From the IMG/VR virus record IMGVR_UViG_2687453188_000002: a stretch of 47,998 nt of DNA, one strand, 5' to 3'. The stretch comes from a virus (lineage: Duplodnaviria; Heunggongvirae; Uroviricota; Caudoviricetes). This document shows, piece after piece, positions 6,245 to 31,497 of the stretch (position 1 is the stretch's first letter; every line of letters begins with the position of its first letter). A program made the position numbers and the translations under genes. The notes below the pieces were generated by a model. The model was not told the DNA's origin. It worked only from the letters and a program-made list of their open reading frames with translations, and ran no database searches.

Positions 6245-6607
6245 TTAATGACCTGCTGCGCGGAGTTTTCCGTCAGGTTCACCGGCAAGAGTCAGTAATT
6301 GTCCCTGGTCTTCCTGCAGAATAGTCAGGCGACCACCTCGATTGACATACATCGGCGTTTCGGTGGTGTCTTCTTCGGAGATTTTCCCGCGGTTAGTCGG
6401 GCGAACATATGAGAGTTTGTGTTTGATTTTCACACGGTTCTCATCAAACGGTTCGATGTCCAGATTGACCGAGACTTTACCTTTGTTTTTCGTGTTCATC
6501 ACACCGGAAGCGACTTCACTGAGAACTGCGCCGAGTTTGGTTTCAAATACGCCGCCGTCCAGTTCTACGATAAATACCTGCACATCAGTACTGCGTACGC
6601 TAGCCAT
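6245..6607 (-). CDS. Hypothetical early protein (YfdP-like by position)
   Basis: Start taken at internal ATG (MASVRSTDVQ...) giving 120 aa. The longer 197-aa frame upstream has a low-complexity Cys/Arg-rich extension that looks non-coding. Confidence 0.45.
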   Translation of the reverse strand: MASVRSTDVQVFIVELDGGVFETKLGAVLSEVASGVMNTKNKGKVSVNLDIEPFDENRVKIKHKLSYVRPTNRGKISEEDTTETPMYVNRGGRLTILQEDQGQLLTLAGEPDGKLRAAGH

Positions 6608-7205
6608 TTTGCTGCTCCTCATCATACCGACCCTGCAAGGTCGGTTGGTTTCTCCACAAAACAGAGAAGAACACCTGCGGTGACAGCCGCCCGGATGGAT
6701 TGGGTTATGAGCCCGTCGTCCGGTGATGCTCTTCTCTGTTTTGTAAAAAGAGCGGTACCAGCCGGAAGCAAGGGTACAAACTGGTACCGCCAAAGCAGTG
6801 GCTGTTGTGGTGGGGTTGTCACTCAGGCGTATGGTCAACCTGACAATCCGGTGTCCTCAACGGGGAAAGAGTAACCCCGCCATACTTACCGCCGCGCCAT
6901 TTCGCGGATTACCACAACGCTGAGAGCACTTAGCCAGTTACGGCACCACACTTTGTCGCGGTTCCATAAATGCCCTCATCGTTGCACCCTGGTCTCTTCC
7001 CAGGCGTCAAACCGGATCGCCACGCTGGTTAGGCGTCTTATCAGCATCATCATTGACTTGCACATTCCGGCTACCTGGTTTGTTTGCCCGAGCAAGGAGT
7101 GGATTGTCCCCTTTAACGTCACCAGACCGCTAACGACGCATGTGCCATACGCCGTGTTACAACCAAATTTTGTTAGTACCTTGTTTGTATGTCTGGAAAG
7201 AAAGA

Positions 7206-7244
7206 TAAAATGAAGTTGCGCATTATGCAAGTGTTTTTATTGCG
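7206..7244. promoter_or_regulatory. Putative left operator/promoter (OL/PL): two TTGC-N7-GCAA palindromes
   Basis: ttgcgcattatgcaa (7206-7220) and ttgcgagatatgcaa (7230-7244), centres about 24 bp apart, just downstream of the cI 3' end and upstream of the leftward operon. The same palindrome recurs in the cI-cro intergenic region. Confidence 0.5.
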
Positions 7245-7309
7245 AGATATGCAATTTGGTGGGTAATGAAAAGCCACCTTCTGGTGGCTAATTGATGTTG
7301 AGGTAGGGG

Positions 7310-8002
7310 TTAATTGTGTCGCTTAAGGGTTTGTGACTGACTGATTAAGACCTTTCCAAAGACCATAAACCGATGTTCGTTTTCGCTGGTAATTCCCCAT
7401 TCGCGGTAAATCTGATTATCAGAAATTACCAGCAGTTTATCAGGTATCATTTGCAGTCGTTTGACGTAAATTTTATCATCAAAACCAAATACATATATAC
7501 CATCCCCATCAAACTGATTGATACTGATATCAACGAAGATGAGATCTCCTGGCTCAATGGTTGGACACATACTGTCCCCACGAACGTTGATAACTTTAAT
7601 GTGATTGGCTGGCCGTCCGCCAAACATCGATACAGCATTATCAGTTCTGTATTCAATGGCATGAATCACATCAATGACATCACCGCCCTGGATAAGGCCA
7701 TTTCCCGCACTGGCACTGACATCCAGCATTTCAATACGGAATACATCCTTCACCTGCGCAACATCCTCACCAATACTGTTTTTACATACAGTATTACTTT
7801 TGACGTCTGAGGTAAAGAGATCAGCGATATCAACACCTAAGCTCCTGGCAATATTACTCAGGGCTTGTTCAGTGAATTGTTTCTGCTTACCTGTTTCCAG
7901 GCGTGAGATATTCGCCGCATCCACTCCTATTGCTTCAGCGAGATCGGCGATTTTCATGTTCTTCGCCTGGCGAAGTTGTCTGACTCGGTTTCCTATGTTC
8001 AT
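7310..8002 (-). CDS. cI: CI-type repressor (HTH plus LexA-like S24 peptidase domain)
   Basis: 230 aa. N-terminal XRE-type HTH (VRQLRQAKNMKIADLAEAIGVDAANISRLETG) and C-terminal S24 signature (GDSMCPTIEPGDLIFVD ... KRL), divergent from cro. Confidence 0.85.
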   Translation of the reverse strand: MNIGNRVRQLRQAKNMKIADLAEAIGVDAANISRLETGKQKQFTEQALSNIARSLGVDIADLFTSDVKSNTVCKNSIGEDVAQVKDVFRIEMLDVSASAGNGLIQGGDVIDVIHAIEYRTDNAVSMFGGRPANHIKVINVRGDSMCPTIEPGDLIFVDISINQFDGDGIYVFGFDDKIYVKRLQMIPDKLLVISDNQIYREWGITSENEHRFMVFGKVLISQSQTLKRHN

Positions 8003-8099
8003 GCGTTTATTACATTTCTTTATTGCGCGTTAAGCAAATCAACTTGCGCAAAATATTTGCGTGAAATAATATGCTCATCACGCAATATGTGGAGGTTAT
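8003..8099. promoter_or_regulatory. Putative OR/PR/PRM immunity control region
   Basis: 97-bp divergent intergenic region. Perfect TTGC-N7-GCAA site at 8023-8037, palindromic ttgcgcaa at 8045-8052, near-match aTGC-N7-GCAA at 8071-8085, and GGAGG Shine-Dalgarno at 8091-8095 before the cro ATG. Confidence 0.6.
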
Positions 8100-8360
8100 A
8101 TGCAATCACCATTACGGAATGTGCGTAAGGCGCACGGATTTACTTTGCAGCATGTTGCTGCGGGCGTTCAGGTCAATCCAGCGACGCTGAGTCGTATTGA
8201 AAGACTGGAACAAATTCCATCTATCGATCTTGCAGAACGTCTGGCCAATTTTTTTAAGGGTGAAATCAGCGAAATGCAGATTCTTTATCCGGCACGTTTT
8301 CAATCTAGCCAAAACCAGAATGGGTTTAAACCACAGGAACAGGAGGTAAGCCGTGGGTAA
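8100..8360 (+). CDS. cro: Cro-like HTH regulator
   Basis: 86-aa ORF with HTH (HGFTLQHVAAGVQVNPATLSRIER) transcribed divergently from cI. Confidence 0.7.
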   Translation: MQSPLRNVRKAHGFTLQHVAAGVQVNPATLSRIERLEQIPSIDLAERLANFFKGEISEMQILYPARFQSSQNQNGFKPQEQEVSRG

Positions 8361-8910
8361 TCATCACTGGAAAGTGGAAAAACAGCCTGAGTGGTACGTG
8401 AAAGCTGTCAGAAAAACTATCGCGGCGTTGCCGGGGGGTTACGCTGAAGCTGCTGAGTGGCTGGATGTAACAGAGAACGCATTATTCAACCGCCTTCGTG
8501 CAGATGGCGATCAGATTTTCCCGCTGGGATGGGCAATGGTTTTACAGCGTGCGGCTGGCACTCACTACATTGCGGATGCTGTCGCACAGTCTGCTGGTGG
8601 GGTGTTCGTATCGCTTCCTGAAATTGAGGCAGTAGAGAACGCCGATATAAACCAGCGCCTGCTGGAAGTCATTGAACAGATCGGCAGTTATTCCAGACAG
8701 ATTCGTTCAGCAATCGAAGACGGTGTAGTGGAACCGCATGAGAAGACAGCAATTAACGACGAACTGTATCTTTCAATTTCGAAGCTCCAGGAGCATGCAG
8801 CACTGGTCTACAAAATCTTCTGCGCTCCAGAAAAGAGTAACGCCCGCGAGTGTGCAGCTCCGGGCGTCGTGGCGTCGATTGCTTCTGGTTGTGGAGAAAC
8901 TAACGCATGA
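8353..8910 (+). CDS. CII-like phage regulatory protein (CII/YdaT-type)
   Basis: 185-aa ORF right after cro with a GTG start behind an AGGAGG Shine-Dalgarno. Position is that of cII; family assigned by position and general resemblance only. Confidence 0.45.
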   Translation: MGNHHWKVEKQPEWYVKAVRKTIAALPGGYAEAAEWLDVTENALFNRLRADGDQIFPLGWAMVLQRAAGTHYIADAVAQSAGGVFVSLPEIEAVENADINQRLLEVIEQIGSYSRQIRSAIEDGVVEPHEKTAINDELYLSISKLQEHAALVYKIFCAPEKSNARECAAPGVVASIASGCGETNA

Positions 8911-10052
8911 ATAGTTTAACGGCAAATAACCGTTTGTCGCAACAGCTGGTGGTCAGCGTCGCTGAACACCTGTTGTTACGGCATGAATGCAGATTACCAA
9001 ATCACCTGGCTGTAAGTAACCACAGAGAACTTTACCTGACTGTGGGGGGCGAGTTGTGCAGGAACTTAACCGCTGGTTTCGTGACGGAAGAGGGCTTTAT
9101 GTCCATGTTATTCGTTGGGAGCCAGAAACACAGCGCGTTATCTATCTTCGCAAAGACTACCCGCATGAGTGCTTTAGTCCTTTGTGGAAATTCAGGCGTG
9201 ATTTTGTTGAGTGTGAAGGACCACCAGCATATTGATTCTGCAATTCCGGGACGTTACACTGTTCAGGCACCTTATAAAGCGGGTGCCGGGATTGGCGTCC
9301 TGAAATTCGCACATGCGCATAACCGCGCTTCAGCGGTTTTTTTGCGCACGTTTCCTCACATCCAAATTATGGTGGGGCGTGCAGGGGCATCGAAAGATGC
9401 GCCGGGGTCATGTGCGACCGGTTACGCCAACCCTGTACGTCTCACCACCTCTGTGATTGGCGTCCCATGTGGTGAGTTTTCAAAATTCGCACATGAGGAT
9501 GTCACTATGGCAACCACCCCTACCCAAACTCACCCTAAAATTGATGTTATCCATGGGAAGGCTGTTACCTCTTCTTTGGCCGTTGCCGAATATTTCTGCA
9601 AGCAGCACAAAAACGTTATTCAAAAAATCCAGACGCTTGAGTGCTCTGTTGAATTCACTGAGCTGAATTTTCAGCCCAGTGATTACACCGATTGCACAGG
9701 CCGCAAACTCCCTTGTTACCAAATCACCCGCGACGGTTTTGCGTTTCTTGCCATGGGCTTCACGGGGAAACGTGCTGCCCGGTTCAAAGAGGCATACATC
9801 AATGCCTTTAACCAGATGGAGAAACAGCTTTCAAATCCCTCTGTACTGAGCGACGTTGCACATAACGCCAGCGTTCTCTATTCCTACATTTCATCAATTC
9901 ATCAGGTCTGGCTGCAGCAGCTTTATCCCATGTTGGCAAAAGCCGAATCCCCGCTGGCTGTAAGTCTGTATGACCGCATCAACGACGCGGCGCTACTGGC
10001 CAGTCTCATAAATTTGTCGCTGAACCCTTCAGAGGTAAGGGGGCGCAAATGA
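8907..10052 (+). CDS. ORF with C-terminal Rha-type phage regulatory domain; N-terminal 200 aa of doubtful coding status
   Basis: ATG at 8907 overlaps the cII stop (ATGA). Residues from MATTPTQTHPKIDVIHGKAVTSSLAVAEYFCKQHKNVIQKIQTL (from about 9507) look like a Rha domain. The upstream part is low-complexity, contains direct repeats and a terminator-like hairpin, so the real Rha gene may start near 9507. Confidence 0.45.
   Translation: MNSLTANNRLSQQLVVSVAEHLLLRHECRLPNHLAVSNHRELYLTVGGELCRNLTAGFVTEEGFMSMLFVGSQKHSALSIFAKTTRMSALVLCGNSGVILLSVKDHQHIDSAIPGRYTVQAPYKAGAGIGVLKFAHAHNRASAVFLRTFPHIQIMVGRAGASKDAPGSCATGYANPVRLTTSVIGVPCGEFSKFAHEDVTMATTPTQTHPKIDVIHGKAVTSSLAVAEYFCKQHKNVIQKIQTLECSVEFTELNFQPSDYTDCTGRKLPCYQITRDGFAFLAMGFTGKRAARFKEAYINAFNQMEKQLSNPSVLSDVAHNASVLYSYISSIHQVWLQQLYPMLAKAESPLAVSLYDRINDAALLASLINLSLNPSEVRGRK
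9323..9343 (+). terminator. Possible short intrinsic terminator inside the 8907-10052 ORF
   Basis: ccgc-gcttca-gcgg followed by a run of 7 T. The stem is only 4 bp, so this is weak. Confidence 0.25.
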
Positions 10053-10269: not shown

Positions 10270-11088
10270 ATGAGTATGGAGCTGATGGTTAAAGCGATGA
10301 AAATTCGAGTGGGTAATCCATTGCGAAAACTGGTTCTGATCAAGCTGGCTGATAATGCCAGCGATCAGGGTGAGTGCTGGCCCAGCTACCAGCATATTGC
10401 TGACCAGTGCGAGATTAGCAAACGTTCTGTGATGAATCATATTGCGGCCCTTTGTGAGTCCGGGCTGGTAAAAAAAGTCACCCGGAAAGGTGAAAAAGGT
10501 AACTCAAGTAATATCTATCTCCTTCATCTTGATGGTGCAGGAGATTCACTAGGGGGTAGTGCAAATAATTCACTATCTGGTGCAGCAAATTCACCAGGTA
10601 GTGCAGGAGTTGCACCAGGGGGTGGTGCAGGAGATTCACCCAGAACCAGTCACTCTTTTGAACCAGTCAAAGAACCAGTCAATGAACCAATAGCTGTTGG
10701 TGCATCTGCTGATGAGTCTGTGCGAGTTCGTTCAAACCGACCGGAATACTCTCCGGAGTTTGAGCAGGCATGGCTGGCATACCCCAAACGTGCTGGTGGC
10801 AATTCAAAATCTGCAGCCTTCAAAGCCTGGAAAGCCCGTTTGAATGAGGGGGTAAAACCCGAAACCATGCTGGAAGGTGTGAAACGCTACGCGGGCTGGG
10901 TATCTGCGATGGGTAACAGCGGCACACAATTTGTGAAACAGGCTGTCACGTTCTTTGGTCCGGATCGTCATTTCGAAGAATCCTGGGAAGTTCCTGCGGT
11001 ATCTGCAGCCAGACGCGAGGACCCGTACTTCAAAGCCAGTTACGACAACGTGGACTACAGCCAGATCCCGGCAGGATTCAGGGGGTGA
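10270..11088 (+). CDS. Replication initiator O-like protein (HTH N-terminal domain) with internal origin iterons
   Basis: ATG at 10270 behind a GGAGG Shine-Dalgarno. N-terminal HTH (SYQHIADQCEISKRSVMNHIAALCESGLV), then a Gly/Ser/Ala linker encoded by iterons. Position after cII matches lambda O. Confidence 0.6.
   Translation: MSMELMVKAMKIRVGNPLRKLVLIKLADNASDQGECWPSYQHIADQCEISKRSVMNHIAALCESGLVKKVTRKGEKGNSSNIYLLHLDGAGDSLGGSANNSLSGAANSPGSAGVAPGGGAGDSPRTSHSFEPVKEPVNEPIAVGASADESVRVRSNRPEYSPEFEQAWLAYPKRAGGNSKSAAFKAWKARLNEGVKPETMLEGVKRYAGWVSAMGNSGTQFVKQAVTFFGPDRHFEESWEVPAVSAARREDPYFKASYDNVDYSQIPAGFRG
10534..10639. repeat. Iteron array (putative ori) inside the O-like gene
   Basis: About five imperfect 21-24-bp direct repeats of GGT(A)GTGCAG...ATTCAC; ggtgcaggagattcac is exact at 10534-10549 and 10624-10639. 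Analogous to the ori iterons inside lambda O. Confidence 0.6.
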
Positions 11089-31149: not shown

Positions 31150-31497
31150 ATGGTGACGAAAACCATCACTGAACAGCGTGCGGAAGTACGTATTTTTGCC
31201 GGTAATGATCCGGCTCATACCGCCACAGGCAGCAGCGGGATTTCTTCTGCAACACCGGCTCTGACGCCCCTGATGCTGGATGAAGCCACCGGGAAACTGG
31301 TGGTCTGGGATGGACAGAAAGCCGGTAGTGCGGTTGGCATACTGGTACTGCCGCTTGAAGGCACCGAGACGGTGCTGACCTATTACAAGTCGGGGACCTT
31401 TGCGACGGAGGCAATCCGCTGGCCTGACAGTGTGGATGAACACAAAAAGGCAAATGCCTTTGCCGGCACAGCCCTGAGTCACGCGGCTCTGCCGTAA
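31150..31497 (+). CDS. D: Head decoration protein D
   Basis: 115 aa similar to lambda gpD (NDPAHTAT ... TPLMLD ... LVVWDG ... VGIL ... YKSGTF). Confidence 0.85.
   Translation: MVTKTITEQRAEVRIFAGNDPAHTATGSSGISSATPALTPLMLDEATGKLVVWDGQKAGSAVGILVLPLEGTETVLTYYKSGTFATEAIRWPDSVDEHKKANAFAGTALSHAALP

Follow-up and report, generated by a model that had tools for sequence, protein, structure and literature searches.

Putative operators of a lambda-type immunity switch of the mEp460/SfII type on both sides of cI in a lambdoid prophage

Introduction

The operators of phage lambda are 17 bp long, and those of phage 434 are 14 bp long and read ACAA-N6-TTGT. For phage HK022, the closest experimentally studied homologue of the locus reported here, it is known that the left (OL) and right (OR) operators lie approximately 700-800 bp apart, that an extra CI operator downstream of OR contributes to immunity, that sites 53 bp apart are bridged by CI, and that looping occurs between OL and OR (PMC8053113). 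Here we examine a palindrome, TTGC-N7-GCAA, that recurs to the left and to the right of the repressor gene cI in a 47,998-nucleotide stretch of DNA from a virus of the Caudoviricetes (IMG/VR record IMGVR_UViG_2687453188_000002; hereafter the window). The window represents a lambdoid prophage without stx that adjoins yecE/yecN, and its cI region is identical to one in E. coli O104:H4. It is highly likely, judging from the sequence and its relatives, that the palindromes serve as operators in a lambda-type lysis/lysogeny switch of the mEp460/SfII immunity type and are bound by cI and Cro.

The locus resembles that of lambda in many respects. The genes cI and cro are divergent, palindromes of odd length occur on both sides of cI and would overlap the putative lytic promoters PR and PL and the putative cI maintenance promoter PRM, the repressor is of the self-cleaving S24 type, the OL sites are paired at 24 bp, the cI mRNA from PRM is probably leaderless, and cI, cro and the putative operators move together as one immunity cassette. 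It is unlike lambda in that the operator is 15 bp long, in that OL has two sites instead of three, in that an adjacent OR1-OR2-OR3 triplet and a canonical OR2 are lacking while one full site lies inside cro, and in that cI directly adjoins OL, which is ca. 800 bp from OR, with neither rex genes nor an N gene.

Results and Discussion

Palindromes around cI

A preliminary description of this DNA, made by a model from the letters alone, had reported two perfect copies of the palindrome to the left of cI, and one perfect and one near-perfect copy between cI and cro. The left-hand copies are indeed real and perfect, although they had been placed at 7206-7220 and 7230-7244, each 10 bases too low, whereas the coordinates of the right-hand copies are correct according to both the sequence reading and our scans. 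A fifth site, at 8121-8135 within cro, had been missed. The sites and the two regulatory genes are given below, with scores from a symmetrised position weight matrix (PWM) that was built from 55 distinct sites.

7216-7230: OL-a, the putative PL-proximal operator, TTGCGCATTATGCAA; perfect TTGC-N7-GCAA in the exact scan, PWM score 18.7
7240-7254: OL-b, the putative second left operator, TTGCGAGATATGCAA; perfect match, PWM score 20.3, the highest in the window
8023-8037: OR-a, putative operator, TTGCGCGTTAAGCAA; perfect match, PWM score 18.5
8071-8085: OR-b, putative operator, ATGCTCATCACGCAA; one mismatch (ATGC-N7-GCAA), PWM score 16.7
8121-8135: OR-c, candidate third right-hand operator, GTGCGTAAGGCGCAC; in codons 8-12 of cro, PWM score 11.8
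7310-8002, minus strand: cI repressor (WP_001387485.1), 230 aa, with an XRE/434-type helix-turn-helix and an S24 self-cleaving domain
8100-8360, plus strand: cro (WP_001191669.1), 86 aa, XRE-type helix-turn-helix (Pfam HTH_3)

The genes cI and cro are separated by a gap of 97 bp, the layout of lambdoid cI/Cro pairs, and palindromes of the same type are present both in the cI-cro region and on the far side of cI, as is characteristic of lambdoid OR and OL. OL-a and OL-b are 24 bp apart (centre to centre), and most relatives possess a paired OL site with a spacing of 22-24 bp. The full sites OR-a, OR-b and OR-c are 48 and 50 bp apart (ca. 4.6-4.8 helical turns).

A scan of the whole window, as the preliminary description had proposed, revealed 6 perfect copies of the motif as compared with 1.9 ± 1.4 in shuffled sequences, none of which reached six. 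Three perfect copies fall within the 232 bp of non-coding DNA flanking cI, for which simple arithmetic from the scan predicts ca. 0.009, and the remaining perfect matches (at 9692, at 18677, within a tRNA, and at 31400) are at the level expected by chance. When all classes of 4-base arms and gaps were counted in this cI-flanking non-coding DNA, only TTGC with a gap of 7 had three copies, and a palindrome class of any kind with three copies was obtained in just 3 of 2000 shuffles. The one-mismatch class of the motif is not enriched across the window (27 versus 34 expected), and the case for the site at 8071-8085 is, therefore, made by its position and conservation and not by motif statistics. 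In the PWM scan of the window the top ranks are taken by 7240, 7216, 8023 and 8071 (scores 16.7-20.3), and 4 sites reach a score of at least 14 as compared with 0.25 in shuffles, although these scores are partly circular since the sites in the matrix had been picked by motif.

Conservation of the sites in related loci

The palindromes were compared in 14 loci with a cI that is 67-100% identical, representing at least seven genera and derived from E. coli, Shigella, Salmonella, Klebsiella, Citrobacter, Pseudescherichia, Buttiauxella and Trabulsiella; columns were counted in an OR alignment of 11 sequences and an OL alignment of 9 sequences. In all 14 loci motifs occur at offsets of -35 and -83 from the start codon of cI, in 8 of the 14 a motif with one mismatch or fewer is found at -133, and in most the OL pair is located at approximately +745 to +774. 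Beyond these fixed-offset sites there are almost no motif matches in the 3.7 kb inspected for each of the 14 loci.

All 18 columns of the TGC/GCA cores of the three sites in the OR alignment are invariant, whereas each of the 15 spacer columns (positions 6-10) varies, and the OL alignment likewise shows invariant cores and variable spacers among the 9 relatives. In OL-a both TTGC and GCAA are fixed in these relatives and in OR-a TTGCG and GCAA are fixed, with a variable spacer in either case. The left half of OR-b, at offset -83, is ATGC in every one of the 14 loci, which we attribute to the overlap of OR-b with the putative -10 hexamer of PR. Among the 55 distinct sites of the matrix, T2, G3 and C4 are invariant, G5 is present in 74%, the centre is A or T in 98%, and all tolerated mismatches concern the outermost base. 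The refined operator consensus is wTGCGnnWnnCGCAw, 15 bp in length and free at its outermost base. The earlier proposal that the palindrome defines the operator half-site of this immunity type is thus supported, albeit with TGC(G) rather than TTGC as the invariant core.

Operator type and recognition helix

The link between the palindrome and the two regulators is provided by their DNA-binding domains. In cI, Pfam recognises HTH_3/HTH_26/HTH_31 together with Peptidase_S24, and its sequence shows the Ala-Gly (SASAGNG), GDSM and VKRL motifs; the protein is 99.6% identical to the mEp460 repressor. BLASTP gave no alignment between the N-terminal domain of cI and Cro, but with MAFFT a helix-3 signature, A-(N/T)-(I/L/V)-S-R-(L/I/V)-E, is seen to be common to cI and Cro across the family (in the window, ANISRLE in cI and ATLSRIE in Cro). 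The motif accompanies the ANxSRxE helix in the 14 loci and is absent with other helices: TGC-N9-GCA is lacking in the control regions of Turner, Salfasec13b, PhiR30_1 and HK022, whose cI homologues are 42-43% identical, and in those of e14. The operator type, therefore, co-varies with the recognition helix and travels with cI and cro.

The comparison with the known lambdoid immunity groups, which the preliminary description had suggested, places the locus in the mEp460/SfII immunity type, as its cI, cro and control DNA are nearly identical to those of these phages (nucleotide identity over 7100-8400 of 99.2% with mEp460 and 90.3% with SfII, and 96% with the Stx2a phages 1447/WGPS2). The same five sites are present in mEp460, SfII and Stx2a 1447/WGPS2, without any real difference, and the records of these phages annotate cI and cro and no operators. 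The operators of HK022, 434 and lambda differ. HK022, with a cI to which that of the window is 43% identical, also has a palindromic operator of 15 bp, but its recognition helix is KAISKWFNG instead of ANISRLETG and its operator is TGAAC-N5-GTTCA; its OR contains TGAACCATAAGTTCA twice. Because both helix and operator sequence differ, we regard HK022 as a separate immunity. With 434 the locus shares the fold of the N-terminal domain of cI (434 repressor, 1sq8, E = 2e-4), a repressor and a Cro that are both XRE-type with related recognition helices, and conserved outer half-sites of 4-5 bp around a variable centre, but the positions of Q28/Q29/Q33 are occupied by A/A/R in the cI of the window.

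The prophage e14 of E. coli K-12 is instructive in that it has the same backbone, with a YmfL that is 91% identical to the cII-like protein of the window, and a repeated palindrome on both sides of its repressor gene ymfK. However, neither the DNA-binding domain of YmfK nor YmfT shows a relationship to the cI and Cro of the window, and the palindrome is GTACC..GGTAC, so that e14, which was considered as a member of this immunity type, was rejected on account of its different cassette and different palindrome. In the e14 locus (L021, 1586-2530), TGTACC-N6-GGTACA and GGTACA repeats occur between ymfK and ymfT as well as downstream of ymfK, and these are probably the operators of the YmfK/CohE repressor.

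We infer from these data that both cI and Cro bind the sites. Alternatively, the sites could be real but serve one regulator (e.g., Cro alone) or a factor of the host or otherwise independent of the cassette, with cI acting elsewhere. Such a scenario draws on the fact that sites were assigned to proteins by sequence, from which an order of affinities cannot be read, and on the apparent strength of OR-a over PRM, which is odd for a cI site. Yet cI and cro are the only genes of the cassette, and their products have the helix-3 signature in common. A host factor would neither follow the cassette through seven genera nor vanish in heteroimmune cassettes on the same backbone, and no other repeated palindrome is open to cI according to the count of palindrome classes. 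The neighbouring cII-like protein was also considered as the binder and dismissed, since it is 91% identical in e14, which itself lacks the motif. We consider this scenario very unlikely and prefer binding by both cassette-encoded proteins.

The immunity cassette

The exchange of DNA between related phages delimits the unit to which the palindromes belong.

7175-8324: immunity cassette comprising PL/OL, the cI terminator, cI, OR and cro, delimited by BLASTN against Stx2c_PV98-693
7264-7289, minus strand: rho-independent cI terminator, a hairpin (7272-7289) followed by a U-run
8353-8910: open reading frame (ORF) of a cII-like protein of the CP76/YmfL type

Homology to the heteroimmune phage Stx2c_PV98-693 stops at 7174 and restarts at 8325. 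The 1.15 kb block in between holds exactly PL/OL, the terminator, cI, OR and cro, and all sites are, therefore, inherited together with both regulators. The junctions (7174/7175 and 8324/8325) are sharp mosaic boundaries with respect to Stx2c phages carrying the e14-type YmfK/YmfT cassette; the left one lies 27 bp beyond the putative -10 of PL and the right one in the final 36 bases of cro, before the cII-like gene. The cI terminator, which the terminator scan detected, folds into a stable RNA (-12.3 kcal/mol, z = -4.6), and its stem shows compensatory changes in relatives (GCCACC/GGTGGC, GGCCTC/GAGGCC, CCGCC/GGCGG, GACCAC/GTGGTC).

Of 5426 complete E. coli genomes, 1041 carry the cassette. 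Among its carriers are the O104:H4 outbreak lineage, the Shigella serotype-converting phage SfII, and several Shiga toxin (Stx) phages (Stx2a_1447/WGPS2 and phiSTEC1575-Stx2k). Every computational test that was run, i.e., those of position, conserved cores, recognition helix and cassette, agrees with the earlier proposal that the palindrome marks OL and OR.

Putative promoters and competing explanation of the half-sites

The positions of the promoters were deduced from conserved hexamers adjoining the sites.

8044-8049, plus strand: putative PR -35, TTGCGC, within an invariant 10-mer
8067-8072, plus strand: putative PR -10, TAATAT (TAAYAT in the family), with T, A, A, -, A, T invariant; 8/12 scan matches
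7230-7225, minus strand: putative PL -35, TTGCAT, the right half of OL-a as reverse complement
7207-7202, minus strand: putative PL -10, TATCTT, 17 bp from the TTGC half-site
8037-8032, minus strand: putative PRM -35, TTGCTT, reverse complement within OR-a
8014-8009, minus strand: putative PRM -10, TGTAAT; ATTACA invariant in 11/11 relatives, with varying flanks
8042-8051, plus strand: invariant 10-mer, ACTTGCGCAA, of which all 10 columns are fixed in 11 relatives, the next 15 being variable

Invariant hexamers of the form TAnnnT or TGTAAT thus lie 17 bp from TTGC half-sites at PR, PL and PRM, none of which was called by the promoter scan. At PR the 17-bp spacer between TTGCGC and the -10 is fixed in all relatives, whereas the DNA between the two hexamers is not conserved. 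To the left of the sites in the OL alignment the sole invariant bases are 7202, 7206 and 7207, which correspond to T-7, A-11 and T-12 of PL. Transcription is predicted to start at approximately 8079-8080 from PR, 7195 from PL and 8002 from PRM. Since the -10 of PRM ends 6 nt before the ATG of cI, and no Shine-Dalgarno sequence precedes that ATG, the cI mRNA from PRM is probably leaderless. One minus-strand promoter that the scan did call, TCCACA...TATTAT at 8093-8066, was rejected; its -35 overlaps the ribosome-binding site of cro and is not conserved.

The -35 hexamers of PL, PR and PRM all seem to be TTGC half-sites, so that a protein bound there would be in direct competition with RNA polymerase. 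Dimers of an SOS-cleavable cI, and of Cro with its nearly identical recognition helix, would bind through their 434-type helix-turn-helix domains. OL-a would cover the -35 and spacer of PL, probably aided by cooperative binding at OL-b, 24 bp away, and OR-b, lying over the -10 and start of PR, would shut off cro and the lytic genes. OR-a would lie over the -35 and spacer of PRM, with OR-c as a further site downstream of PR.

The coincidence of three TTGC half-sites with the putative -35 hexamers of PL, PRM and PR, together with the resemblance of TTGC to the TTG of TTGACA and the lack of enrichment of the one-mismatch motif in the window, could also be taken to mean that these elements are merely -35-like hexamers in an AT-rich control region, with coincidental palindromic partners and no dedicated repressor sites. 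This seems barely credible, as GCAA is found as the partner at exactly N7 without exception in 9-11 diverged relatives whose spacers differ, and as no -35 falls on OL-b, the left half of OR-a, OR-b or OR-c. Furthermore, the motif is gone once the recognition helix changes, and a class with three copies is as rare in shuffles as mentioned above.

Besides the circularity of the PWM scores, several other observations weigh against reading the palindromes as operators of a lambda-type switch. Neither PL nor PR nor PRM was picked up by the consensus promoter scan; the putative -35 hexamers match the consensus in just 3 of 6 positions, and the -10 of PRM has a G at position 2 where A is usual. An OR2 from which PRM could be activated is not recognisable, and with a spacing of 48/50 bp lambda-style pairwise cooperativity is not evident. 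OR-a, the expected site for repression of PRM, looks as strong as any other, and both outer bases of OR-c are altered in the window (G...C). Finally, we found no binding, footprint or transcription-start data for this immunity type in the literature.

Arrangement of the putative right operator

The cI-cro gap contains only two full sites, 48 bp apart, and not the tripartite OR of lambda, in which three neighbouring sites are spaced ca. 23-24 bp (2.3 turns) and cI on OR2 activates PRM. The additional palindrome TTGCGCAA that the preliminary description had noted between them is present, at 8044-8051 rather than 8045-8052, but no full operator is located there, as the PWM score at the invariant 10-mer remains below 2. 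It is best read as a part of ACTTGCGCAA that combines the -35 of PR with orphan half-sites (TTGCG / CGCAA). Three candidates for a canonical OR2 were dismissed, namely 8047-8061 (CGCAAAATATTTGCG), which is 24 bp away from either neighbour, 8044-8058, and 8037-8051, since none is conserved as a complete site and all score 2 or less; one-mismatch versions of them are found only in Camal, Kp4873 and Eeyore.

This raises the question whether the switch is wired differently from that of lambda, i.e., with widely spaced right-hand sites and an orphan half-site instead of an OR1-OR2 pair, and with a strong site over PRM. We put this forward only tentatively and regard it as somewhat doubtful. If so, repression of PR might require OL-OR looping or a downstream operator of the HK022 'antivirulence' type, and cI might only repress and not activate its own synthesis. 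HK022 provides a precedent for the bridging of wide-set sites, but the 48 bp in the window are not in helical phase.

To the left of PL, the ca. 590 nt on the minus strand between the putative PL start and the first annotated leftward gene (ca. 6607-7195) contain no convincing ORF. Phages of this group are described as lacking an N gene (PMC3851460). A conserved RNA in this leader, as a possible put/nut analogue, was considered and rejected: ca. 6607-7195 has no Rfam match, its fold is not unusual (z = -1.2) and no consensus structure was obtained. A leader element of 28 nt is common to SfII, Adana, Eeyore and e14 and is absent from the PL leader of the window.

A candidate operator within cro

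OR-c ranks sixth by PWM in the window and is located 50 bp from OR-b. At the corresponding offset (-133) other lineages have TTGC-N7-GCA(A/T/G), with a perfect copy in phage Eeyore, and its TGCG and CGCA are invariant in the OR alignment. Codons 8, 9, 11 and 12 of cro are NTG, CGN, NCG and CAN in every lineage, which preserves TGCG...CGCA, whereas third codon positions located in the OR-c spacer, as well as other Leu, Arg and Val codons in the vicinity, vary freely. From this codon usage it appears that the choice among synonymous codons, on the core bases only, keeps OR-c in place. Furthermore, two defective prophages, in Pseudescherichia (L012) and in Klebsiella spallanzanii (L013), have a replaced or truncated cro and yet keep cI and all three right-hand sites; L012 lacks OL as well.

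OR-c is likely to be a third right-hand operator. Alternatively, OR-c could function as a hairpin in the RNA, or simply result from the conservation of the Cro residues that it encodes, and would then not be a DNA operator. OR-c does fold as a hairpin of 6-7 bp (-8.2 kcal/mol here, z = -1.95) that looks terminator-like in the terminator scan, it encodes the conserved Cro residues (V/L)-R-K-(A/S)-(H/Q), and in the window both its outermost bases depart from TTGC/GCAA. The stability of the hairpin is, however, not maintained (-6.0 kcal/mol in one case and -4.0 kcal/mol, z = -0.4, in a Salmonella relative), and five lineages have U-U as its outer pair. The codons are fixed precisely at the operator core bases, OR-c is retained where cro is truncated or replaced, and its sequence, with the central A/T, agrees with the operator consensus. 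The closest studied relative, HK022, moreover, has a CI operator beyond OR on the downstream side that plays a part in immunity (PMC8053113). An origin as hairpin or coding by-product is, consequently, rather unlikely in our view. The extra operator of HK022 is more distant, ca. 300 bp downstream as compared with 50 bp for OR-c.

Significance of the putative operator map

Searches of the accessible literature for the site sequences, the consensus notation, mEp460, SfV/SfII and e14 did not yield a description of these operators. The locus represents an ordinary lambdoid immunity switch whose specificity is very common and was previously uncharacterised, the cassette being carried by about one in five complete E. 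coli genomes and by several Shiga-toxin phages. The consensus and site map allow mutual immunity of prophages to be predicted and reporter or footprint experiments to be designed, and it can now be asked how operator layout relates to induction and, for Stx phages, to toxin release. As the switch is of the textbook type, the gain is in annotation and testable detail and not in a new principle, although the interest would grow somewhat if the unusual layout of OR and the operator inside cro prove functional.

Other features of the window

Two further groups of matches to the operator matrix were evaluated. The fifth-best PWM match in the window (13.8), at 10407-10421 (GTGCGAGATTAGCAA), agrees with OL-b in 12 of 15 bases. 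It was rejected as an operator because heteroimmune phages (Stx2c phages, SfV and ST64B) have the same replication-gene segment with 98-100% identity, so that it has no tie to this immunity; the resemblance is probably a coincidence. Within 400 bp of the antirepressor gene (9478-9870) there are four weak PWM matches (7.9-9.6), among them the perfect copy at 9692. This cluster was likewise rejected, as all but one of the matches are gone in the Salmonella relative, and these weak sites are probably non-functional.

Rfam detects isrK (9267-9343, 62 bits) and C4 antisense RNA (9365-9452, 75 bits) on the plus strand, both within a 381-aa ORF (8907-10052) that corresponds to a 'Rha family phage regulatory protein' in RefSeq (Pfam Ash plus Rha). 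The segment 9267-9452 looks like an antisense-RNA/antirepressor module of the P1 immI type, which renders the call of the long ORF doubtful. Lastly, the late region (17375-21069) resembles that of a Shiga-toxin phage without the toxin genes and contains a DNA methyltransferase, tRNAs for Ile-Arg-Arg (18474-18722) and the small RNA STnc100 (18802-18992), followed by an esterase of 617 aa of the SASA/NanS-p type.

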